This document shows, piece by piece, positions 9,491-56,486 of a stretch of 64,000 bases of DNA (within the stretch, counting starts at the first letter, position 1; every line of letters starts with the position of its first letter). Source of the stretch: Alphaproteobacteria bacterium. GTDB lineage: Bacteria; Pseudomonadota; Alphaproteobacteria; UBA828. Location of the stretch: positions 256,001 through 320,000 of the forward strand of contig CBDCQT010000012.1 in assembly GCA_965220745.1 (NCBI GenBank), given 5' to 3'. A model generated the notes under the pieces. The model had not been told where the DNA came from, searched no databases, and saw only the letters and a list, made by a program, of their open reading frames with translations. Made by a program: the position numbers and the translations under genes.

Positions 9491-10489
9491 TTAGTACCGC
9501 AGGTGCGCCGCTCGGTGTGCCTCTTCTTCGAGGGCCGTTGGCAAACGAGGGTCGAGGATGATCGTTTCTTGCTCGAGCCACAGTCCCGAGTTCTTGAGTT
9601 CGTGAACGAGCTCAGGCGCGTCGGTGAGGTCCAGATCGCTGGACCACGGTCGCTTCAGCGCCCGTTTGGGCACGCATTCCTTCCAGAACTCCGGCACCAC
9701 CCATCGCAGTCGCGAGTAGTGCTTCTTGAGGTGGTTCACGATCCCGGCGCCCTGCGGGTCGAGGTCGCCGAAGTGGAGGAGAGGGATGTCTTCGAGCTGA
9801 TCCAGGACAAGCCTTGCGGTGGCGGTGTTCCACCCCGGGACGTGCATCACGATCCAGTCTTCGGGCACGCGCACGTCGATGTAGGAGCCGAGATTCTCGA
9901 CGAGTAGCGCGACGCTCGGTCGCCTCGCCGTGAGCCGCGTGCCGTCGCGTAGTGCTCTCTCGGTCAGTACCATCTCACCCGCGATGTCGACGAAGACGGA
10001 GGCATCGATGCACCGATCGGAGCCCTCCAGCATCAGCCCCTTGTTAGGGCGAAGCCGCGCAATCCCGTCGCGTGTGAGTTCGATTCCGGCGAGAGCCGTT
10101 CTACGCCCGTCGGTGAGGCCTGCCTTCGAATGCGGACCGACATATGCCGCCGCCGTCTTTTCGTTGAGCCTCTTGGGCAGGGCCTCCACCCGGCCTGCAC
10201 GTTCGGCGTCTTGAAACGCTTTCCAGCCCTCGCATGTCACCGGTAGGCCGGCTTCGACAAGTCGCGCTTGCGCATCGCGCCACTCCGGCCATCGCCGGTC
10301 GAGCATCTCCTCGACTTCGCTTTGCATGCCTGCTGCGAGTGCGAATTCACCGCGCCTACCTGTTGCCTTCGTCCATCGAAGCTGCTCAAGCCATTCCCAC
10401 GCTTTACGTTGGCTTTCTCTGCGAGTGAGCCTTCCTTCATGGACCAGCTCCAGGACCGCGAACCTGTTCGCGTCGCTGTCCCACATCAT
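9491..10489 (-). CDS. JetD/MksG-like Toprim-domain protein (DUF2220-like; Wadjet nuclease subunit homologue)
   Basis: 332 aa; C-terminal LLVEN...HVPGWN...LHFGDLDPQG...LEQE Toprim pattern; start overlaps the stop of the SMC fragment (ATGA). Confidence 0.75.
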   Translation of the reverse strand: MMWDSDANRFAVLELVHEGRLTRRESQRKAWEWLEQLRWTKATGRRGEFALAAGMQSEVEEMLDRRWPEWRDAQARLVEAGLPVTCEGWKAFQDAERAGRVEALPKRLNEKTAAAYVGPHSKAGLTDGRRTALAGIELTRDGIARLRPNKGLMLEGSDRCIDASVFVDIAGEMVLTERALRDGTRLTARRPSVALLVENLGSYIDVRVPEDWIVMHVPGWNTATARLVLDQLEDIPLLHFGDLDPQGAGIVNHLKKHYSRLRWVVPEFWKECVPKRALKRPWSSDLDLTDAPELVHELKNSGLWLEQETIILDPRLPTALEEEAHRAAHLRY

Positions 10490-11053
10490 GCGGTTGCCTC
10501 CGCGACCACCCGTCTCCCGGTCACGCGGACCTCTTCTTCTCCGTCGCCATCCGACACCCGCACGAGGCGATACGTCGTGTTGCCCTCGGCCTGTGCCACT
10601 TCGGGTGCTGCGACCATGAGCTGAAGTTGGAGGTTTCGGCAGAGATCGAAGAGCACCGCGAGGTTCTCGCGGTCGAGCCGGTTCGCTTCGTCGAGGAGGA
10701 GGAGCCTGAGCGTCCCCTGCGCGCTCTGCGCCCGCAACAGGCTTGCGCCCCGCTCCCATGCGGTGAGCACCACCATCATGAGTGCGGCGCCGATCCCAAT
10801 GCTCTCGCCGGTCGAGATCCGAATCGAATTCGCCGTCTCCCATCCCGTCCCGGCCTTCCTTCTCACTTCGACGCGCGGATCGACATACTCGCGGTAGTCG
10901 AGGAGTCGATGTCCCTGTGCCCGTCGGCCGGCAAACTTCCGGAACAGTTCGTTGAGCGCCTCTTCGAGGGGGAGGTCGGGGGTGAAGAGCCTGCCCTGTC
11001 CGTCTCCTGTTCGGAGCGCCTCGAGGACGTTCTCCATCTCAGGCACGCGGCCC
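10486..11053 (-). pseudogene. mukB: MukB-type SMC ATPase, C-terminal head fragment (truncated, IS-interrupted)
   Basis: LLDYREY, signature ISTGESIG, Walker B LLLLDEANRLD, LQLMVAAPE and GNTTYRLVR match the E. coli MukB C-terminus as I recall it (LLDYRNY, LSTGEAIG, LFLDEAARLD, MQLIIAAPE, GTTYKLVR). Confidence 0.8.
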
Positions 11054-12316
11054 TGACCTGCCCCCGTCGACTGGTCCAGGTCGAATGTTAGTGCATCGCG
11101 GGTTCCTCGGCCAAGCTGGGTGGCCGGCGGAGCGTAGCGGAGCCGGGCGGCCAGCTTGGCATGATGATCGTCTCCGGGGCCGGCGGCCGGTATCCCAGGC
11201 TGCCGTGTGGGCGGATCGCGTTGTAATGGCACCGCCACGATTCGATGAGAACCTGGGCTTCCTTCAGGGTGTAGAAGATCTCCCCGTTCAGGAGCTCGTC
11301 GCGCAGCCGCGCATTGAAGCTCTCGATGTAGCCGTTCTCCCAGGGTGAGCCCGGCTCGATGAAGGCGGTGCGGGCGCTGACCGCAGCGATCCACCGCCTG
11401 ACGGCCTCGGCGACGAACTCCGGACCGTTGTCGGAACGGATCCAGGTCGGAATGCCGCGCAGGATGAACAGGTCGGTCAGCACATCGATGACGTCGATCG
11501 AGGAAAGCCTCCTGCGCACCCGGATGACCAGGCTCTCGCGGGTGAACTCGTCCAGGACGTTGAGCATGCGGAAGGCCCTGCCGTCATACGTCCGGTGATG
11601 GACGAAGTCGTAGGACCAGACGTGATCCGCCCTCTCGGCGCGCAGCCGGATGCAGGAGCCGTCATTGAGCCAAAGCCGGCCCCGCTTCGGTTGCTTGCCG
11701 GGCACCTTCAGCCCCTCGCGCCGCCACAAGCGCTCGATCCGCTTGTCGTTGACCTGCCAGCCGGCATCGCGAAGCAGGGCCGCGATGCGGCGATAGCCGT
11801 AACGGCCGTACTGGCGGGCCAGCTCGATCATGTACGCGACCAGGCGGTCCTCGTCGTCGCGGCCGCGCGGGATGCGGCGCTGGGTCGAGCGGTGCTGCCC
11901 CAGCACCCGGCAAGCGCGGCGTTCCGAGACCCCGAGCCGGTCACAGACATGATCGATGCACTGGCGCCGGCGCGAGGGGCTTAGAAGTTTCCCCCTGCGG
12001 CCTCTTTGAGAATCTGCTTGTCCAGCGTCAGATCGGAGACCGCACGGCGCAGCCGCTCGTTCTCCTTCTCGAGCTCCTTCAAACGGCGGAGCTGATCGCC
12101 GCTCATCCCGGCATACTCCTTGCGCCAGCGGTAGAAGGTAACCTCGCTGATCCCAAGCTCGCGGATCGCGTCCGCCATCGACATGCCCTGGCCGTTCAGA
12201 ACCTCAGCCCGCCGCAGCAGGCTCACGATCTCCTCGGGCTTGTAACGCTTCCTTGCCATCGTCGGTCCTCCTCTTTCCATAACCTAAGGGTGGACCAACT
12301 CGATGGGGGAGGATCA
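11054..12316 (-). mobile_element. IS3-family insertion sequence (IS407-like group), copy 1, 1263 bp
   Basis: Imperfect TIRs TGATCCTCCCCCATCGAGTTGGTCCA / TGACCTGCCCCCGTCGACTGGTCCA; 4-bp target duplication GCCC (11050-11053, 12317-12320). Confidence 0.95.
11088..12259 (-). CDS. IS3 transposase OrfAB (programmed -1 frameshift)
   Basis: OrfA HTH (MARKRYKPEEIV); slippery G GGA AAC; OrfB DDE core (WSYDF, SDNGPEF, NGYIESFN). Confidence 0.92.
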
Positions 12317-12651
12317 GCCCAGTCGCGCGCCCATTTGGATGTTATCGGGTTAAGATGACCATTTGAGCGGATCACTTTCATCTGGAACGTGAGAATGAAG
12401 GTGATGTCAAGCTCAAGATCCCTCCGGCCTGGTAAAGGGTTTTCTCCAAGGGAATCGGCATGCCCAATGAGGGAGCTTGCCGACGGCATGACAGCGCATT
12501 ACAGCACGAAACAGGCTCGCTTGCGTTCCATCCGGGCTGCCCAAAAGACCCCAGTAGACAGCCCCCACGGTAACACCGTGGAGGCAACCACTGCCGGCAA
12601 CAGTTGCGGAAGAGACAGTGTGCCGAACAGGCCGCGAACCCGACATCGCCG

Positions 12652-12861
12652 CTATGCGTCAGAATGACAACCCTCTTCGTCAGTACACAACTCGAACATC
12701 TCTTTCTTGAGTGCATCCTCAAGGGGCTTCTTTTCGGGATCGCATATGGGAGGTCGCTCCGTGCATGAGCGGTCTCCCTGCAAGGTGACGGCATGGGACG
12801 TCGAAATCGACGCAACCATGATGGCTGCCGCAAAAGGCAGCAGAGCGAGGGGGGCTTTCAT
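12652..12861 (-). CDS. Putative small secreted Cys-containing protein (69 aa)
   Basis: MKAPLALLPFAAAIMVASISTSHA reads as a signal peptide (SHA cleavage site), followed by a 4-Cys mature part; no homology recognised. Confidence 0.45.
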   Translation of the reverse strand: MKAPLALLPFAAAIMVASISTSHAVTLQGDRSCTERPPICDPEKKPLEDALKKEMFELCTDEEGCHSDA

Positions 12862-13213
12862 CGGACAATTCTCCCGCCAGCTTTTGGATCGAGTCTTGAG
12901 GCAAGTATGACAGTAACCGATTTCAACCCGAGGCGTGTGCGCTGTAGAGCAATCATCTTCAGAATTCGATTGCAGTGATGTGCATCGACCCGCGAAGCGA
13001 GCACGGTGGCTCGGGACCCTCAAACTCCGCCCCTGCGGGACCGGCCGCCCGCCCCGGCTCGGCGTTTCGGTGCACGGCGTTGCGGGCGTCGACGGTCCCG
13101 GCCCTTCGGCGGGCGGCGGGACCGTGGCGCCCCCGCAGCGCGGGAGTCGGACGGGAAGCGCGCGGATTCGACAACAATTGCCGACGCCATGGCACCGATC
13201 TTCAGCAGCTTGA

Positions 13214-13618
13214 GGCGTCGAGATCGGGGGAATGACCTTTTGGGGCTCGCCCTGGCAACCATAGTTCTTTGACATGGCCTTCAATCATGAGCGCGGCGCA
13301 GAGCTTCGCGAGAAGTGGGACCCGATACCGGCGCACGTCGATGTCCTGATCACCCACGGCCCGCTCCATGGCGTGTTCGACCGGACCGAGACGGGCGAGA
13401 ATGTCGGTTGCGGGGAGCTTCGTGACGCAACTCAGCGCACGTGCCCGCGGCTTCACGTCTTCGGACACATTGTCCATGGCCGCGGCTGGCGGCGCCTTGG
13501 GAGCACGCTTCATGTCAACGCACCGAGTTGCGCCGGCCGCCATGAGCCCCTCAACCCGGTGCCGGTTGTCGACCTTCCGGCTGGCGGCGATGCCATTATC
13601 GCAACCCAGGTGTTGTAG
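13214..13618 (+). pseudogene. Metallophosphoesterase (MPPED-like) C-terminal remnant
   Basis: FWGSPWQP*FFDMAF with in-frame TAG at 13262; DVLITHGP, VGCGEL, LHVFGHI; N-terminal half missing. Confidence 0.75.
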
Positions 13619-13847
13619 CGGAGAGCCGAAACCGGCCACCTTGCGGAACTCTGCGCGGAGAGCGAAGGCGGCATCGCGTGCCCGCAAGCTCGGTTCCAGG
13701 AAGTAGGGCGCCAAGTGGTTCGAACCGGGTATGTCCAAAGGCGCTCCGAGGGAGCGGTGAGCCGCCGGCCCTTGTCAGTCGGCCTGCCCGCGCCGATATG
13801 CATTACAAAACGAGCTACGAACGATTGGTCCTTTGCGGGAGGCGATC

Positions 13848-14852
13848 ATGGGGCCGGAGGACAGGCGCGGCGGCCGGGGGTCGGCTGACGACGAATTGGA
13901 GGGGCGCGACCTGCTGGTCGGCCGGCCGCAAGGGGCGGAGATCAGGCCGGGCGCCGGGACCGAACAATCGCCGGCGGCTGCAACGTCTTCGCAACCAGGT
14001 GCGCACGCCGAGAACATCCGGGAGATCCTCGAGACGGTGCGGGCGACGGCAGCCAAGATTGACGCACTTGAGGCCGCGTCAGGATCGGACCCGGAGAACG
14101 AGAAGGGCGACGCGCTGGCTCGCGAAACGGCGGCGCTGGCCAACGAGAGAACGGCGCTGGCTCGCGAGACGGCGGCGCTGACCGGCGCGAGAATGGCGCT
14201 GGCCGACGAGAGAGCGGCGCTGGCCGGCGAGAGAGCGGCGTTGTCTCAGGCGCTAAAAGCAGCCCGCGGCTCGCTCGCGAAGGCGGAGGCGCTCGCCGCG
14301 CGGTGGGAGGAGAAGGCGTCGTCCGAAGCCAGCGTGCTGTCCCAGGATATCGCCGCGCTGAAGAAGGAGAATGCAGCGCTCGGCACGTACGTCGGGGAAG
14401 CGCACAAGCTGGCAAATAAGGTGAGTGAGCAAATGCATACGGCGATGTCGGAGAGGAAGGCCGTCTACGACAGCAAGATCGACTTTCAGGAAACGGCGAA
14501 GGGGATGGCCGACACTCTTCGCGTTCACGCCGAGAGTCTTGGCGTTCACGCCGAGAACATGCTCCGCATCAATCGGAATCATCGGTTGCGCCCCTTGCGG
14601 ATAGGCGTGGCCTTTGGGGCCGCGTCGCTCGTGTTCTTCCTGCTGGGCACGGTGCTGCAGGCGGAGGTCGACGTGCTGTCGTTGGGCGATGAGTACCGCG
14701 AGTGGAACGACCATGTCCTGGAGCACTACGGTCCGACACTCGCCCTTTGCGCGATGCGCGCGACTTCGGCCGAAACGACCGGCAGGTGCCCGATCGACAT
14801 CGAGCCGGTGCCGGAGATTACGATTCCTTTCTCCTATCCCGAGTTGCGGTAG
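13848..14852 (+). CDS. Hypothetical coiled-coil protein with C-terminal transmembrane helix, upstream of the relaxase
   Basis: RBS GGGAGG; heptad repeats; hydrophobic IGVAFGAASLVFFLLGTVL. Confidence 0.7.
   Translation: MGPEDRRGGRGSADDELEGRDLLVGRPQGAEIRPGAGTEQSPAAATSSQPGAHAENIREILETVRATAAKIDALEAASGSDPENEKGDALARETAALANERTALARETAALTGARMALADERAALAGERAALSQALKAARGSLAKAEALAARWEEKASSEASVLSQDIAALKKENAALGTYVGEAHKLANKVSEQMHTAMSERKAVYDSKIDFQETAKGMADTLRVHAESLGVHAENMLRINRNHRLRPLRIGVAFGAASLVFFLLGTVLQAEVDVLSLGDEYREWNDHVLEHYGPTLALCAMRATSAETTGRCPIDIEPVPEITIPFSYPELR
14112..14243 (+). repeat. 21-bp tandem repeat (about 6 units) encoding ALAxExx heptads
   Basis: gcgctggctcgcgaaacggcg / gcgctggccaacgagagaacg / gcgctggctcgcgagacggcg and following units. 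Confidence 0.85.
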
Positions 14853-15131
14853 CCGTGAAACAGTTTCGGTCGCGGCACGCGGGGAGGCTGTCCAGCCCCA
14901 TGGGCATGGAGTTGGCCGAGATCGCCAGCGGCGGCGCGGCGGAGACGAACGATGGACTTCCCCGATATGGCCAGAAGCTGTCTCTCGCGGCCGACTGGAG
15001 TGCGGCAGGGCCGTTCGGGCGGCCTTGAGTTCAGCGTCCACGCCACCGAGGTGCGTTGCGCTTGACCGTTCGGATTGACCACGGTGCCGCTTGAGGAGGA
15101 TGCTGACCCCACAACGGAGCCGTAGGCGCCC

Positions 15132-18100
15132 ATGGTCTCGACCGTCACACCCCTGAAGCCCGCCGCTGCGACGGTGCACTACTTCGAGGTGGACGGGTAC
15201 TACGCGAAGAACGACCCGGAGCACCGCAAGGCGAGCCGCTGGCACGGCGAGGCTGCGGCGTTGCTGGGCCTGCACGGGCGGGTCAACCCGAAGCGCTTCG
15301 AGGCGATCCTCGCCGGCTACGTGCCAGGCACCGAGCTTCGCCTGGGGCGGCTGCGCGACGGCGAGCACCAGCACAGGCCCGGCGTGGACGTGACCCTCTC
15401 GGCGCCCAAGTCGGTCTCGCTGGAGGCGCTGGTCTATGCGCCGCCGAAGACGGGGGCACGTGTGTTGCGTGCGCACGACGAGGCGGTGCGCGCCACGCTG
15501 GGCTTCATCGAGGCGGAGCTGCTCCAGACCCGGAGCTACGACCGGCAGACGGGTCGGCGGCCTCGGGTGCAGGCCGACGGCATGGTCGCGGCGACCTTCC
15601 GCCACCTGGCGAGCCGCAACCTCGACCCGCAGCTGCACACGCATGCGGTGATCGCCAACATTACGCGCGGCCGGGACGGGGACTGGCGCAGCGCCGAGTT
15701 CACCGCGGTGCAACGCTCGAAGCTCTTGATCGGCGCCTACTACCGCAACGAGCTTCGGACCCGGCTCGAAAAGATCGGATACGCGACAGTGCCGACCCTG
15801 GTGGGCCGGATGCCGGGGTTCGAGATCGCGGGCTACCAGCGGCCGATGCTGGACGCGTTCTCGACCCGGCGCCGTGAGCTTCTGGACTACATGCAGGAAC
15901 AGGGCTGGGAGAACAACCCCGCCAGGGCCCAGCAGGCGGCGCTCTACACGCGGCGGCGCAAGGCGGAGCCGGAGCGGCAGATCCTGCTTGGGACGTGGCA
16001 GGAGCGGGCCCGGGAGCTCGGCCCGGCACGGGACCGGGACATCGCAAGGGGCCGCAACGGGGTCAGCGCATCGGCACTTTCCCGGAGCGAGGCGCGAGCG
16101 CCTCCGTCGGCGCTGTCGGTGGTGAGGCGGGCCGTCGAGCATCTTGAGGAACGGCGCACAGTGTTCTCCGCCAACGACCTGCGCGCCTGGGCGCTGGCGC
16201 ACGGGGGCGGCCGGCACTCGCTCGAAGCGCTGGATGCCGGTATCGCGCAGTTGCGGCGTGACGGGCACCTGATCGAGGCGAAGGCGAGGCGAGCAGACCT
16301 GGCCTTCGTCACCGACCGGGCGCGCAATGCCGAGCGCGACATCCTCGCCGGCATGCGCGCGGGCCTGGGCGGGGGTCGAAAGCTGGCGCCGAAGGCTGCG
16401 GTCGAGGCCCGGCTGGAGGAGGCCGGACTCAACGAGGGCCAACGCGATGCAGCCAGCACGATCCTGCTCTCGCCCCACCGCACGGTGGGGGTGCAGGGCC
16501 ACGCGGGATCGGGCAAGACCACCATGCTGCGCGCGGTGGCGGCGCTGGCGGAGGAGCGGAAAATCATTGGCCTCGCCCCGTCGGCGAGCGCAGCCCATGT
16601 GCTGGCCGGAGAGGCCGACATTCCGGCCCGCACCCTGCAGGGGTTCCTCGCGCGCTACCGCGACGTGGGCGACGGCATCGCCCCGTCCGAGAAGATGGAA
16701 GAAGCGCGCAAGGCCCTGGGCGGTGCCGTGCTGATCCTCGACGAGGCCTCGATGGTGGGCACGGTGCAGATGCGGGCATTGACGCGGATCGCAGAGCAGA
16801 CCGGCGTGGCACGGCTGGCGCTGGTCGGCGACCGCCGGCAGTTGCGCTCAGTGGAGGCCGGCCAGCCCTTCGGCCTGTTGCAGGACGCGGGCATGCCGAC
16901 GGCGAAGATGAACGAGGTGATGCGCCAGCGCGACGCGGACCTGAAAGCTGCCGTGCTGCACATGGTGGCGGACAAGCCACGGCTGGCGGTGGAGGAGCTG
17001 GGCAACGGGGTCCTGGAGATGGAGAGCGACGAGCTCGGCCGCACGGCGGCCCAACTCTGGCTGGACCTCCATCCGTCCTTACGCGCCGGAACGGCGATCC
17101 TGGCGCCCACGCACGAGCTTAGGGCCGAGATCAACGAAGCCGTTCGCCACGGCCTGGAAGACGAAGGGTTGCTGCACGGCCCCGAACTGGAGATCGAGCG
17201 CTACGTCAACCTGCAGCTGACACGCCCGCAGAAGGGCGATGTCGCGAACTACCGGCCAGGCGACGTCGCGGTCTTCCATCACGACGTCTACGGCGTCAAG
17301 GCCAGGGCCGGCGATGCCTGCCGCGTTCTCGAGGCACAGGATGACGGGCGTGTGCTGCTGGCGCATCCCGACGGCAGGGAGCGGCGGATCGACCCGGCCG
17401 GCTACATCCGCTACCGGCTCGACCTCTATGAGACACAGCCGATTGTGCTCAGGGCCGGGGACCAGGTGCGCTGGACCCGCAACGATGCGTTGCGCGGCCT
17501 GATCAACGGCGAACACGCCGAGATCCTCGCTATCGGCCCGGCAAACGTGCACATGCGAACCCAGGACGGGCGCGAGATCGCCATGCGGCGCGACGACCCG
17601 CAGCTGCACCATCTGGACCACGCGTACTCCTCCACCGTGCACGCGGCCCAGGGCCTCACCTGCGACCGGGTGATCGCGGTGCTCGACACGGACCGGGGCG
17701 CGCCGGTCGACCAGGCGATGTTCTACGTGGAGCTCACCCGCGCCAGGGACAACGTGGTGCTGCTGACGGACGACCGCGAGGCGCTGATCGAGGCGCTGGA
17801 GACGGCGCCGGCGGAGGAGCTGTCGGCGCTGAAGGCGATCGGCGAGCAGTTCGAGGCGCCGGAGGAGACCGTTCAACGGCACCCGCTGCATCAGCGGCCT
17901 GCCGTTGTTGACGGTGCAACGAGGGAGCGGCGCAGGGCAGCGGAGCGCCTCGTCGATCAAACCCTGTCGGCGGGCGCGGCCTTGATCCGGGAGCGTGACG
18001 AGCACGCCCGCGAAGCCCATTCGCGTGACGCTCACGTCACCCTTGCGCCCGGCTATGACGAATGGCGGAAAGGCGCCGTGCAGACGCTGGCCGATTGCAA

Positions 18101-18506
18101 CAAGATCCTTGAAGACCGCGAGACGTTCGAGATCCACCTCGACCGCCGCCCCGGCGCGGAAGACGAATTGCGGGGGCTTTCCGCGCAGGTCGAGAGCGAC
18201 CTCGAAGAGGACGACACCGAGATCCAACGCCGCCGCCAGCAGCAGGAACGCCTGCAGAGACAGGAACAGCAGAAGCAGGAGCAACAAGAACAGGCGAAGC
18301 GAGAGCAGGAGAGGCGAGAACAGGAGAGGCGAGAGCAGAAGAGGCGAGAACAGGAGAGGCGAGAGCAGGAGACGCGAGAGCGGGAGACGCGAGAACAGGA
18401 GAGGCGAGAGCAAGAGAGGCGAGAGCAAGAGAGGCGAGAGCAAGAGACGCAAGAACAGTCGCACCGGAAAGGGATGACGCGCGGTCGGGGCGGCATCTCG
18501 ATGTGA
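15132..18506 (+). CDS. MOBF conjugative relaxase-helicase (TrwC/TraI-like)
   Basis: HYFEVDGYY catalytic tyrosines; DVTLSAPKSVS; HLASRNLDPQLHTH HUH motif; Walker A GHAGSGKTT; DEAS; HAYSSTVHAAQG. Confidence 0.95.
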   Translation: MVSTVTPLKPAAATVHYFEVDGYYAKNDPEHRKASRWHGEAAALLGLHGRVNPKRFEAILAGYVPGTELRLGRLRDGEHQHRPGVDVTLSAPKSVSLEALVYAPPKTGARVLRAHDEAVRATLGFIEAELLQTRSYDRQTGRRPRVQADGMVAATFRHLASRNLDPQLHTHAVIANITRGRDGDWRSAEFTAVQRSKLLIGAYYRNELRTRLEKIGYATVPTLVGRMPGFEIAGYQRPMLDAFSTRRRELLDYMQEQGWENNPARAQQAALYTRRRKAEPERQILLGTWQERARELGPARDRDIARGRNGVSASALSRSEARAPPSALSVVRRAVEHLEERRTVFSANDLRAWALAHGGGRHSLEALDAGIAQLRRDGHLIEAKARRADLAFVTDRARNAERDILAGMRAGLGGGRKLAPKAAVEARLEEAGLNEGQRDAASTILLSPHRTVGVQGHAGSGKTTMLRAVAALAEERKIIGLAPSASAAHVLAGEADIPARTLQGFLARYRDVGDGIAPSEKMEEARKALGGAVLILDEASMVGTVQMRALTRIAEQTGVARLALVGDRRQLRSVEAGQPFGLLQDAGMPTAKMNEVMRQRDADLKAAVLHMVADKPRLAVEELGNGVLEMESDELGRTAAQLWLDLHPSLRAGTAILAPTHELRAEINEAVRHGLEDEGLLHGPELEIERYVNLQLTRPQKGDVANYRPGDVAVFHHDVYGVKARAGDACRVLEAQDDGRVLLAHPDGRERRIDPAGYIRYRLDLYETQPIVLRAGDQVRWTRNDALRGLINGEHAEILAIGPANVHMRTQDGREIAMRRDDPQLHHLDHAYSSTVHAAQGLTCDRVIAVLDTDRGAPVDQAMFYVELTRARDNVVLLTDDREALIEALETAPAEELSALKAIGEQFEAPEETVQRHPLHQRPAVVDGATRERRRAAERLVDQTLSAGAALIRERDEHAREAHSRDAHVTLAPGYDEWRKGAVQTLADCNKILEDRETFEIHLDRRPGAEDELRGLSAQVESDLEEDDTEIQRRRQQQERLQRQEQQKQEQQEQAKREQERREQERREQKRREQERREQETRERETREQERREQERREQERREQETQEQSHRKGMTRGRGGISM
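18300..18458 (+). repeat. 15-bp tandem repeat (10 units plus a partial unit) encoding REQER/REQET in the relaxase tail
   Basis: Units of consensus cgagarcargagasg counted directly. Confidence 0.9.
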
Positions 18507-42042: not shown

Positions 42043-42288
42043 TCATGACTTGCCCGCGTGCTGGCGCTTCGCGTCGGGGAGATCTGCCAGCCACCTCTGG
42101 ATGTCGGAGAGACGCCACGCGACGGCGCCGTTTGACCCAGGCCCGATACGCTTTGGCAGCGGAAAGCGCCCCTCTCGCATTGCGGCGTAGAGTCGCGAGG
42201 TGCTCATGCAGGTTATCTCCTAGACCTCGGGCCGGCGTAGCAGCCTGTCCGACATCAGGTCGATTTCTGGTGTGCCATTTGTGGCCAT
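42043..42288 (-). pseudogene. alpA: AlpA-family regulator/excisionase with premature stop
   Basis: DRLLRRPEV*EITCMSTSRLYAAMREGRFPLPKRIG...AVAWRLSDIQRWL; TAG at 42220-42222; not in the ORF track. Confidence 0.8.
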
Positions 42289-43550
42289 GATCCTCCCCCA
42301 TCGAGTTGGTCCACCCTTAGGTTATGGAAAGAGGAGGACCGACGATGGCAAGGAAGCGTTACAAGCCCGAGGAGATCGTGAGCCTGCTGCGGCGGGCTGA
42401 GGTTCTGAACGGCCAGGGCATGTCGATGGCGGACGCGATCCGCGAGCTTGGGATCAGCGAGGTTACCTTCTACCGCTGGCGCAAGGAGTATGCCGGGATG
42501 AGCGGCGATCAGCTCCGCCGTTTGAAGGAGCTCGAGAAGGAGAACGAGCGGCTGCGCCGTGCGGTCTCCGATCTGACGCTGGACAAGCAGATTCTCAAAG
42601 AGGCCGCAGGGGGAAACTTCTAAGCCCCTCGCGCCGGCGCCAGTGCATCGATCATGTCTGTGACCGGCTCGGGGTCTCGGAACGCCGCGCTTGCCGGGTG
42701 CTGGGGCAGCACCGCTCGACCCAGCGCCGCATCCCGCGCGGCCGCGACGACGAGGACCGCCTGGTCGCGTACATGATCGAGCTGGCCCGCCAGTACGGCC
42801 GTTACGGCTATCGCCGCATCGCGGCCCTGCTTCGCGATGCCGGCTGGCAGGTCAACGACAAGCGGATCGAGCGCTTGTGGCGGCGCGAGGGGCTGAAGGT
42901 GCCCGGCAAGCAACCGAAGCGGGGCCGGCTTTGGCTCAATGACGGCTCCTGCATCCGGCTGCGCGCCGAGAGGGCGGATCACGTCTGGTCCTACGACTTC
43001 GTCCATCACCGGACGTATGACGGCAGGGCCTTCCGCATGCTCAACGTCCTGGACGAGTTCACCCGCGAGAGCCTGGTCATCCGGGTGCGCAGGAGGCTTT
43101 CCTCGATCGACGTCATCGATGTGCTGACCGACCTGTTCATCCTGCGCGGCATTCCGACCTGGATCCGTTCCGACAACGGTCCGGAGTTCGTCGCCGAGGC
43201 CGTCAGGCGGTGGATCGCTGCGGTCAGCGCCCGCACCGCCTTCATCGAGCCGGGCTCACCCTGGGAGAACGGCTACATCGAGAGCTTCAATGCGCGGCTG
43301 CGCGACGAGCTCCTGAACGGGGAGATCTTCTACACCCTGAAGGAAGCCCAGGTTCTCATCGAATCGTGGCGGTGCCATTACAACGCGATCCGCCCACACG
43401 GCAGCCTGGGATACCGGCCGCCCGCCCCGGAGACGATCATCATGCCAAGCTGGCCGCCCGGCTCCGCTACGCTCCGCCGGCCACCCAGCTTGGCCGAGGA
43501 ACCCGCGATGCACTAACATTCGACCTGGACCAGTCGACGGGGGCAGGTCA
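42288..43550 (+). mobile_element. IS3-family insertion sequence, copy 2, 1263 bp
   Basis: Same TIRs as copy 1; 4-bp target duplication GCCA (42284-42287, 43551-43554). Confidence 0.95.
42345..43516 (+). CDS. IS3 transposase OrfAB (programmed -1 frameshift at GGGAAAC 42611-42617)
   Basis: OrfA ends GNF*; the -1 frame continues KLLSPSRRRQCID... into the DDE domain. Confidence 0.92.
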
Positions 43551-55223: not shown

Positions 55224-56486
55224 TGATCCTCCCCCATCGAGTTGGTCCACCCTTAGGTTATGGAAAGAGGAGGACCGACGATGGCAAGGAAGCGTTACAA
55301 GCCCGAGGAGATCGTGAGCCTGCTGCGGCGGGCTGAGGTTCTGAACGGCCAGGGCATGTCGATGGCGGACGCGATCCGCGAGCTTGGGATCAGCGAGGTT
55401 ACCTTCTACCGCTGGCGCAAGGAGTATGCCGGGATGAGCGGCGATCAGCTCCGCCGTTTGAAGGAGCTCGAGAAGGAGAACGAGCGGCTGCGCCGTGCGG
55501 TCTCCGATCTGACGCTGGACAAGCAGATTCTCAAAGAGGCCGCAGGGGGAAACTTCTAAGCCCCTCGCGCCGGCGCCAGTGCATCGATCATGTCTGTGAC
55601 CGGCTCGGGGTCTCGGAACGCCGCGCTTGCCGGGTGCTGGGGCAGCACCGCTCGACCCAGCGCCGCATCCCGCGCGGCCGCGACGACGAGGACCGCCTGG
55701 TCGCGTACATGATCGAGCTGGCCCGCCAGTACGGCCGTTACGGCTATCGCCGCATCGCGGCCCTGCTTCGCGATGCCGGCTGGCAGGTCAACGACAAGCG
55801 GATCGAGCGCTTGTGGCGGCGCGAGGGGCTGAAGGTGCCCGGCAAGCAACCGAAGCGGGGCCGGCTTTGGCTCAATGACGGCTCCTGCATCCGGCTGCGC
55901 GCCGAGAGGGCGGATCACGTCTGGTCCTACGACTTCGTCCATCACCGGACGTATGACGGCAGGGCCTTCCGCATGCTCAACGTCCTGGACGAGTTCACCC
56001 GCGAGAGCCTGGTCATCCGGGTGCGCAGGAGGCTTTCCTCGATCGACGTCATCGATGTGCTGACCGACCTGTTCATCCTGCGCGGCATTCCGACCTGGAT
56101 CCGTTCCGACAACGGTCCGGAGTTCGTCGCCGAGGCCGTCAGGCGGTGGATCGCTGCGGTCAGCGCCCGCACCGCCTTCATCGAGCCGGGCTCACCCTGG
56201 GAGAACGGCTACATCGAGAGCTTCAATGCGCGGCTGCGCGACGAGCTCCTGAACGGGGAGATCTTCTACACCCTGAAGGAAGCCCAGGTTCTCATCGAAT
56301 CGTGGCGGTGCCATTACAACGCGATCCGCCCACACGGCAGCCTGGGATACCGGCCGCCCGCCCCGGAGACGATCATCATGCCAAGCTGGCCGCCCGGCTC
56401 CGCTACGCTCCGCCGGCCACCCAGCTTGGCCGAGGAACCCGCGATGCACTAACATTCGACCTGGACCAGTCGACGGGGGCAGGTCA
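55224..56486 (+). mobile_element. IS3-family insertion sequence, copy 3, 1263 bp, no target duplication
   Basis: Same TIRs; flanks AGAC / ACAT do not match. Confidence 0.95.
55281..56452 (+). CDS. IS3 transposase OrfAB (programmed -1 frameshift)
   Basis: Translations identical to copy 2. Confidence 0.92.

Follow-up and report, generated by a model that had tools for sequence, protein, structure and literature searches.

Identification of a probable decayed mukF-mukE-mukB-jetD-like operon

We analysed a stretch of 64,000 nucleotides from contig CBDCQT010000012.1 of an alphaproteobacterium (UBA828), hereafter called the window, and focused on its segment at positions 9491–11053. With a probability of about 0.85, this segment is the decayed 3′ end of a mukF-mukE-mukB-jetD-like operon of the Wadjet/Mks group, a type of operon whose SMC, kleisin and KITE proteins resemble their counterparts in housekeeping MukBEF more closely than those in Wadjet types I–III. 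Two genes are left on the minus strand: the 3′ fragment of a MukB-type SMC gene (10486–11053; 188 codons plus stop), encoding the C-terminal half of the head with its signature motif and Walker B, and an intact gene for a JetD/MksG-like Toprim nuclease of 332 aa (9491–10489; protein P0001), recognized by its stop-free frame, a match to Pfam JetD_C and its predicted fold. The similarity of both is far above chance, with E-values of 2.7e-59 for the fragment against the NCBIfam MukB profile and 9.3e-209 for the Toprim protein against its nearest homologue. The kleisin, KITE, SMC and nuclease genes of such operons are referred to below as F, E, B and D, and related loci carry L numbers.

The two genes meet in an ATGA stop/start overlap (10486–10489, minus strand), which was read directly from the sequence: the TGA of the fragment at 10488–10486 overlaps the jetD ATG at 10489–10487, and the jetD frame is free of stops down to 9491, as had been described in the original prediction, which was made from the letters of the stretch. 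The end of the B gene 4 nt past the start of D was also found in many related loci, for example L018, L020 and L025. An open reading frame of 450 aa (9491–10843) is only an upstream extension of the jetD frame. All homologues begin at MW(D/E), which corresponds in the alignment to 10486–10489 of the window. The five motifs quoted earlier for the SMC fragment (LLDYREY, ISTGESIG, DEANRLD, AAPE and TTYRLVR) are all present in the minus-strand translation of 10486–11100. The fragment end proposed there, 11053, is correct and represents the boundary of an IS3-family element; homology to MukB begins at approximately 11052, and the outer end of the element adjoins at 11054.

The SMC fragment is of MukB type

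The fragment scored 200.9 bits on the NCBIfam MukB profile NF003422 (E 2.7e-59), covering profile positions 1281–1471 of 1486; of the PADLOC JetC models, JetC1 came closest, with 35 bits. The cut-off of the MukB profile is 699 bits, a score that a fragment of 188 aa is too short to reach. Among all PDB sequences, the fragment matched MukB only (three distinct sequences, 96–102 bits, best 101.8). By BLASTP, it showed 41% identity to Escherichia coli MukB (E 9e-31) and 75% identity to the B protein of L002; of the JetC proteins from typed operons (one JetC1, one JetC2 and two JetC3), none was matched significantly. These results bear out the assignment of the fragment to MukB rather than to JetC of types I–III. 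The signature motif ISTGE and the Walker B sequence LLLLDEA (within LLLLDEANRLD) are retained, while the N-terminal half with Walker A, which is invariant as GANGAGKTT in full-length homologues, is gone from the window.

The closest relatives of the fragment are MukB-like proteins of 1011–1012 aa encoded by two metagenome-assembled genomes of Alphaproteobacteria (L002:6966-10004 and L009:6969-10004). Profile positions of approximately 349–613 and 819–1030 are absent from both proteins, and both coiled-coil arms are therefore shortened together, with the heads and the hinge kept.

The Toprim protein is a divergent JetD/MksG-like nuclease

P0001 scored 30.5 bits on Pfam JetD_C, above the cut-off of 22, and 31 bits on PADLOC JetD1; both profiles detect only the C-terminal part of this nuclease of approximately 330 aa. 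No match was obtained for P0001 in NCBIfam, nor to the sequences of the solved JetD or MksG structures by phmmer, and the family profile of D scored MksG at only 23 bits. The relationship is seen in the predicted fold. In a Foldseek search, the AlphaFold2 model of P0001 (predicted local distance difference test score 89) matched best to Corynebacterium glutamicum MksG (8b7f, E 4.3e-07) and Pseudomonas aeruginosa JetD (7til). VIA-align superposed model residues 8–326 on MksG with Z 15.9 (254 residues aligned, root mean square deviation 8.5) and the model on JetD with Z 13.2; the corresponding values for topoisomerase VI-A (1d3y) were Z 14.9, 210 residues and 5.7. The Toprim E...DLD residues expected from the original prediction were recognized as ENLG (E198) and HFGDLDP (D242 and D244), and these, together with WLEQE, are invariant in all 21 aligned homologues. 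Taken together, profile and model suggest that the Toprim protein is a divergent JetD/MksG, which agrees with the JetD-like partner that had been proposed.

Of 8000 candidates scored in a word-indexed search, 510 were related to the nuclease, the closest of them with 95% identity (E 9.3e-209). When 1.84 billion cluster representatives were searched exhaustively, 282 relatives were obtained at E ≤ 0.001, of which 85 also passed E ≤ 1e-30. In two of these relatives, P0191 (1052 aa) and P0216 (975 aa), the D-like region lies at the C-terminus of a long protein; these may be fusions, or gene calls that run through a stop.

Most homologous loci carry the complete four-gene operon

Related loci were collected by an alignment-based scan with one genome per species, and their genes were mapped with local profiles. 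A scan with the single nuclease protein as query found no related locus, while the alignment query gave 79. A match to D was detected in 78 of the 79 loci, and D was near full length in 64. In every one of these 64, a MukB-like frame lies directly upstream of D, as expected if the Toprim homologues are generally located downstream of mukB-like genes. The E and F genes, whose presence upstream had likewise been predicted, were found in 52 of the 54 loci with at least 6.7 kb of upstream DNA; the two exceptions, L044 and L063, have 5′-truncated B genes and lack both E and F.

The subunits of five intact loci were then compared with the canonical MukBEF profiles, namely, the NCBIfam equivalogs NF003422, NF003602 and NF003615, and with the Jet models of PADLOC-DB v2.0.0. 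Four of the five B proteins passed the MukB cut-off of 699 bits (L004, 870; L022, 1126; L071, 872; L078 of Lamprocystis purpurea, 783), while the short B protein of L002 stayed below it at 658 bits. The F proteins scored 230–381 bits on MukF (cut-off 407) and the E proteins 113–141 bits on MukE (cut-off 250), all five loci thus falling below both cut-offs. At E ≤ 0.001, none of the 10 F and E proteins matched a PADLOC Jet model, and the B proteins reached 25–72 bits on JetC. In control operons, a Sorangium type II and two same-genus type III, JetC and JetD scored 246–1337 bits, and matches were also obtained for JetA2 (590 bits), JetB2 (441 bits) and JetA3 (316 bits); among the type III subunits, L099 protein 1 and L101 protein 6 remained unmatched. 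E. coli MukF and MukE gave no match with PADLOC and E. coli MukB scored 57 bits, a pattern that resembles the D-linked set. The comparison of JetC with MukB profiles thus came out in favour of a MukB-type SMC gene preceded by mukF and mukE.

That the locus is left over from an ordinary operon of Wadjet type I, II or III, its MukB look being a general JetC/MukB resemblance, is very improbable: JetC itself is MukB-like, the PADLOC JetC1 and JetD1 matches exist at 35 and 31 bits and type III operons occur in the same genus, but the 200.9 bits on MukB, the exclusive PDB matches to MukB, the 41% identity to E. coli MukB against no significant match to JetC1–3, and partner genes of homologues that match MukF and MukE but none of the JetA and JetB models all stand against it.

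Not all copies are intact. L048 and L068 contain many frame breaks, and L057, L060, L076 and L080 are fragments of D without B. Five loci with sufficient upstream DNA show a D remnant without a B signal (L041, L057, L060, L076 and L080), and D is partial in all of them. In the loci from Kistimonas and Endozoicomonas (L070–L073 and L079), the match to the D profile is confined to its C-terminal approximately 225 positions, and their nuclease is thus divergent in its N-terminal part.

An insertion sequence marks the break

The fragment ends at an IS3-family insertion sequence (IS) of 1263 bp (11054–12316, minus strand), identified by Pfam HTH_Tnp_1, rve and rve_3 and by imperfect terminal inverted repeats; its orfA and orfB lie at 11981–12280 and 11088–11906, both on the minus strand. 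In full length, the element occurs 14 times in the genome, eight times on the contig of the window, and several partial copies are also present. Two further full copies are located within the window at 42288–43550 and 55224–56486 (contig positions C12:298288-299550 and 311224-312486). The full-length copies are 98.8–100% identical, which points to a recent expansion of the IS. GCCC flanks the element on both sides (11050–11053 and 12317–12320), and matching 4-bp target duplications were found at four other copies; GCCC therefore looks like the target-site duplication of a simple insertion. A chance match of GCCC after recombination between IS copies is unlikely (approximately 0.6% from base composition). 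IS insertion accompanied by an adjacent deletion was rejected, as it does not fit the matching GCCC flanks.

Apart from the fragment, no MukB, MukE or MukF signal was detected at 8–20 kb of the window, which includes DNA beyond the IS, or elsewhere in the 4.8-Mb assembly. Thus, mukF, mukE and approximately 80–87% of mukB are absent from the whole assembly, the exact share depending on the length of the original B protein (1012 or 1473 aa), and the description of the locus as a remnant was upheld. The remnant is most likely inert, because the motor is missing and the nuclease is left without its activator. Read-through from the IS genes, which lie in the same orientation, may still lead to its transcription.

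The nuclease might instead have been retained after loss of the motor and work alone or with the MukB head stub, for instance as a free-standing nuclease. The intact gene with all family-invariant residues, the 95% identity to the nearest homologue and the preserved ATGA coupling to the stub would all suit such a protein. However, a MukB-like frame adjoins D in every one of the 64 loci where D is near full length, D is partial in all five loci without a B signal, and the near-identity of the IS copies indicates an expansion so recent that the time for decay was perhaps too short. Retention of a working nuclease is therefore considered unlikely, and we favour the decayed end of a mukFEB-jetD operon.

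Several points nevertheless weigh against this reading. The anti-plasmid function of the subclade is something that we only infer. The nuclease is intact with all of its family-invariant residues, a state that fits a very recent truncation and also a retained function of its own. The flanks of the IS suggest a simple insertion, yet homology to MukB stops exactly at the IS, with no MukB-like sequence past it, a combination that a simple insertion does not account for. Finally, no MukB, the canonical one included, was found in 200 plus 60 further genomes; few candidates were scored per genome, and this result carries little weight.

Co-divergence, distribution and coexistence with Smc

Pairwise identities of the B head and of D across 53 loci correlated with r 0.946, a value that none of the 999 permutations of a Mantel test reached. 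This correlation indicates that the nuclease has travelled with the motor over the whole depth of the clade, and the four genes are an old co-evolving unit. The original prediction had regarded the operon as a hybrid, a view that could not be maintained in the face of this co-divergence of B and D.

Canonical Smc was detected above the cut-off in all five tested carrier genomes and in the genome of the window itself, and the D-linked copy was the sole MukB match in each of the five carriers. The trees mix phyla: a Pseudomonas ulcerans protein is placed with Polyangiaceae, and that of a metagenome-assembled genome of Spirochaetales with Gammaproteobacteria. An intact operon (L104; NZ_CP091309.1 69508-85764) resides on pBPJTT, an 880-kb plasmid of Burkholderia pyrrocinia, next to a gene with a SAVED domain and an IS21 element, where its genes are annotated as hypothetical protein, MukE, MukB and ‘DUF2220 domain-containing protein’. 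Such a scattered distribution, with signs of mobility, is more in keeping with a defence system than with a housekeeping condensin.

The family could also be housekeeping MukBEF, the Toprim gene then being a topoisomerase-like accessory of chromosome maintenance rather than a defence nuclease. B proteins that pass the MukB equivalog cut-off, their RefSeq label as chromosome partition proteins, the position of E. coli MukB beside or inside the group in trees and the resemblance of the D fold to topoisomerase VI-A (Z 14.9, 210 aligned residues, deviation 5.7) speak for this explanation. It is rendered quite unlikely by canonical Smc in 5/5 carriers and in the genome of the window, by the cross-phylum, patchy distribution with plasmid-borne and decayed copies, and by the fact that, in structure as in profile, D matches the defence nucleases MksG and JetD best. 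The topoisomerase VI subunit A/Spo11 family shares the Toprim-containing fold with P0001, but the likeness is one of fold only (12–15% identity), and P0001 has no B subunit partner and sits in an SMC operon.

Among 60 relatives of the genome of the window, a JetD_C match was found in only four genomes of the same genus, and the two that were typed are Wadjet type III. These are the control operons L099 (G269:C1:6136000-6149500) and L101 (G276:C1:2696500-2709500), with JetC3 scores of 538 and 749 bits and JetD3 scores of 253 and 246 bits, respectively. The genus of the window thus carries another Wadjet type in other genomes.

How the family relates to canonical MukBEF

Three trees were built, and in each of them D-linked proteins from Kistimonas and Endozoicomonas were the group that E. 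coli MukB joined, with Shimodaira–Hasegawa-like approximate likelihood ratio supports of 85, 97 and 99; this grouping fell inside the D-linked set. In an approximately unbiased (AU) test (22 rows, LG+G4), a tree holding all D-linked proteins together was not rejected (p-AU 0.215). Canonical MukB was represented by E. coli K-12 only, and long-branch warnings were raised in the tree builds. Saturation affected the outgroups, JetC1 and JetC2 (branch length 10), whose position wandered between trees; the root was not established. From the first tree, the near-duplicates L021, L066, L070, L072 and L073 and B genes with frame breaks were dropped; 19 further rows were removed before the second tree, and L046, L058, JetC1 and JetC2, among others, before the third (AU) tree. 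The only claim that we make from these trees is that canonical MukB is sister to, or nested within, the nuclease-bearing group.

A bolder interpretation can be put forward tentatively, at somewhat less than even odds: housekeeping MukBEF might have evolved by loss of the nuclease from a stem that survives in the mukFEB-jetD operons, and these operons might be active anti-plasmid systems on a true MukB-type motor, including the short-armed alphaproteobacterial version of approximately 1012 aa that the window would once have held. If so, these operons would provide test material for the descent of MukBEF from a defence system and for the way in which the length of the arms determines the DNA circles that are cleaved.

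Comparison with known systems

The Wadjet/Mks group has been defined operationally as MksF-MksE-MksB with optional MksG (PMC7617805, Methods). The window copy has a MukB/MksB-type SMC and a flanking MksG/JetD Toprim nuclease, and the co-directional kleisin and KITE genes, absent from this copy, are present in the family. Measured against PADLOC types I–III, the family shows no JetA or JetB matches, and those to JetC (25–72 bits) and JetD (31 bits) are far from strong. Canonical MukBEF acts as the sole condensin, replacing Smc-ScpAB, and has no nuclease partner, according to the available text of two sources (PMC10586767, PMC7617805); the family falls below the MukF and MukE cut-offs, is not the sole condensin and carries a nuclease.

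The gene order of kleisin, KITE, SMC and Toprim nuclease and the JetD/MksG fold are common to the family and to Wadjet/MksBEFG systems. Unlike in Wadjet I–III, the subunits match the MukF, MukE and MukB profiles and not PADLOC JetA, JetB and JetC. Type I JetABCD (E. coli GF4-3 and P. aeruginosa PA14) and C. glutamicum MksBEFG presumably share its working principle, although their sequences are very distant. E. coli MukBEF is the closest sequence relative of the SMC, and the homologues are MukB-like in length (approximately 1473 aa). The family differs from E. coli MukBEF in that its nuclease gene is translationally coupled, and that it coexists with Smc, is patchy and is partly plasmid-borne; ldtD follows mukB in E. 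coli, whereas a nuclease gene takes this place in the family.

Whether the subtype had already been catalogued was left open in the original prediction, and we found that it has been. Data S1 of Bürmann et al. 2025 lists the operons of L034, L040 and L069 as ‘FEBG’ of the Wadjet group (PMC7617805); its FEBG entries include Sorangium cellulosum So ce56 (operon at 8010124–8017521), S. cellulosum So0157-2 and Plasticicumulans lactativorans, and E. coli K-12 is listed there as ‘FEB’. The accessible text of PMC7617805 and of its preprint contains no description of a MukB-proximal subclade bearing a nuclease. A literature search returned no relevant description of a Wadjet type IV or Wadjet-like system, no paper on the subclade, judging by titles and abstracts, and no experiments on these operons. 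The family is real, conserved and widespread and is already listed among the Wadjet-group systems. It is a MukBEF-proximal branch of that group, present in a published dataset and not typed by PADLOC I–III.

In the available portion of PMC10586767, the origin of Wadjet is called unresolved, and a descent of MukBEF from Wadjet is an idea on which the authors find it ‘tempting to speculate’. Operons that score as MukB, MukE and MukF and carry a JetD-like nuclease are natural test material for this idea. Because the PADLOC JetA and JetB profiles miss these operons, they are probably undercounted in censuses of defence systems; public databases label their products as chromosome partition proteins and a DUF2220 protein. 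The contribution of the window is limited to one dead copy, evidence of the gain and loss of such systems in IS-rich DNA resembling a conjugative element.

Proposed mechanism of the intact system

As described in the accessible text on Wadjet I, small circles are extruded in total and then cleaved by the Toprim dimer; JetD contacts the head of JetC through its aCAP domain, and kinked DNA is cut by the Toprim domains (10.1101/2023.11.03.565488). By analogy, the MukFEB-type motor of an intact system would extrude DNA loops. On a small circle that has been fully extruded, two motor units would stall and hold a bent residual segment. The JetD-like dimer would then dock on the SMC heads via aCAP and cut the DNA with its Toprim E...DxD site. 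In a complex prediction of the L002 B head (N-terminal part 1–270 plus C-terminal part 730–1012) with D, a control in which chain 2 had been replaced scored nearly as high.

Surrounding DNA

The region that adjoins the IS (12317–15100) gave no Pfam matches and is single-copy in the genome. It is followed, 2.8 kb beyond the IS, by the gene for a TrwC-type conjugative relaxase with a helicase domain (15132–18506, plus strand; Pfam TrwC 252.7 bits, AAA_30 160.1 bits), the C-terminal tail of which is a long run of E/R/Q-rich repeats. The GC content is 0.57–0.66 at approximately 8.5–13 kb of the window, compared with 0.68–0.72 on either side.

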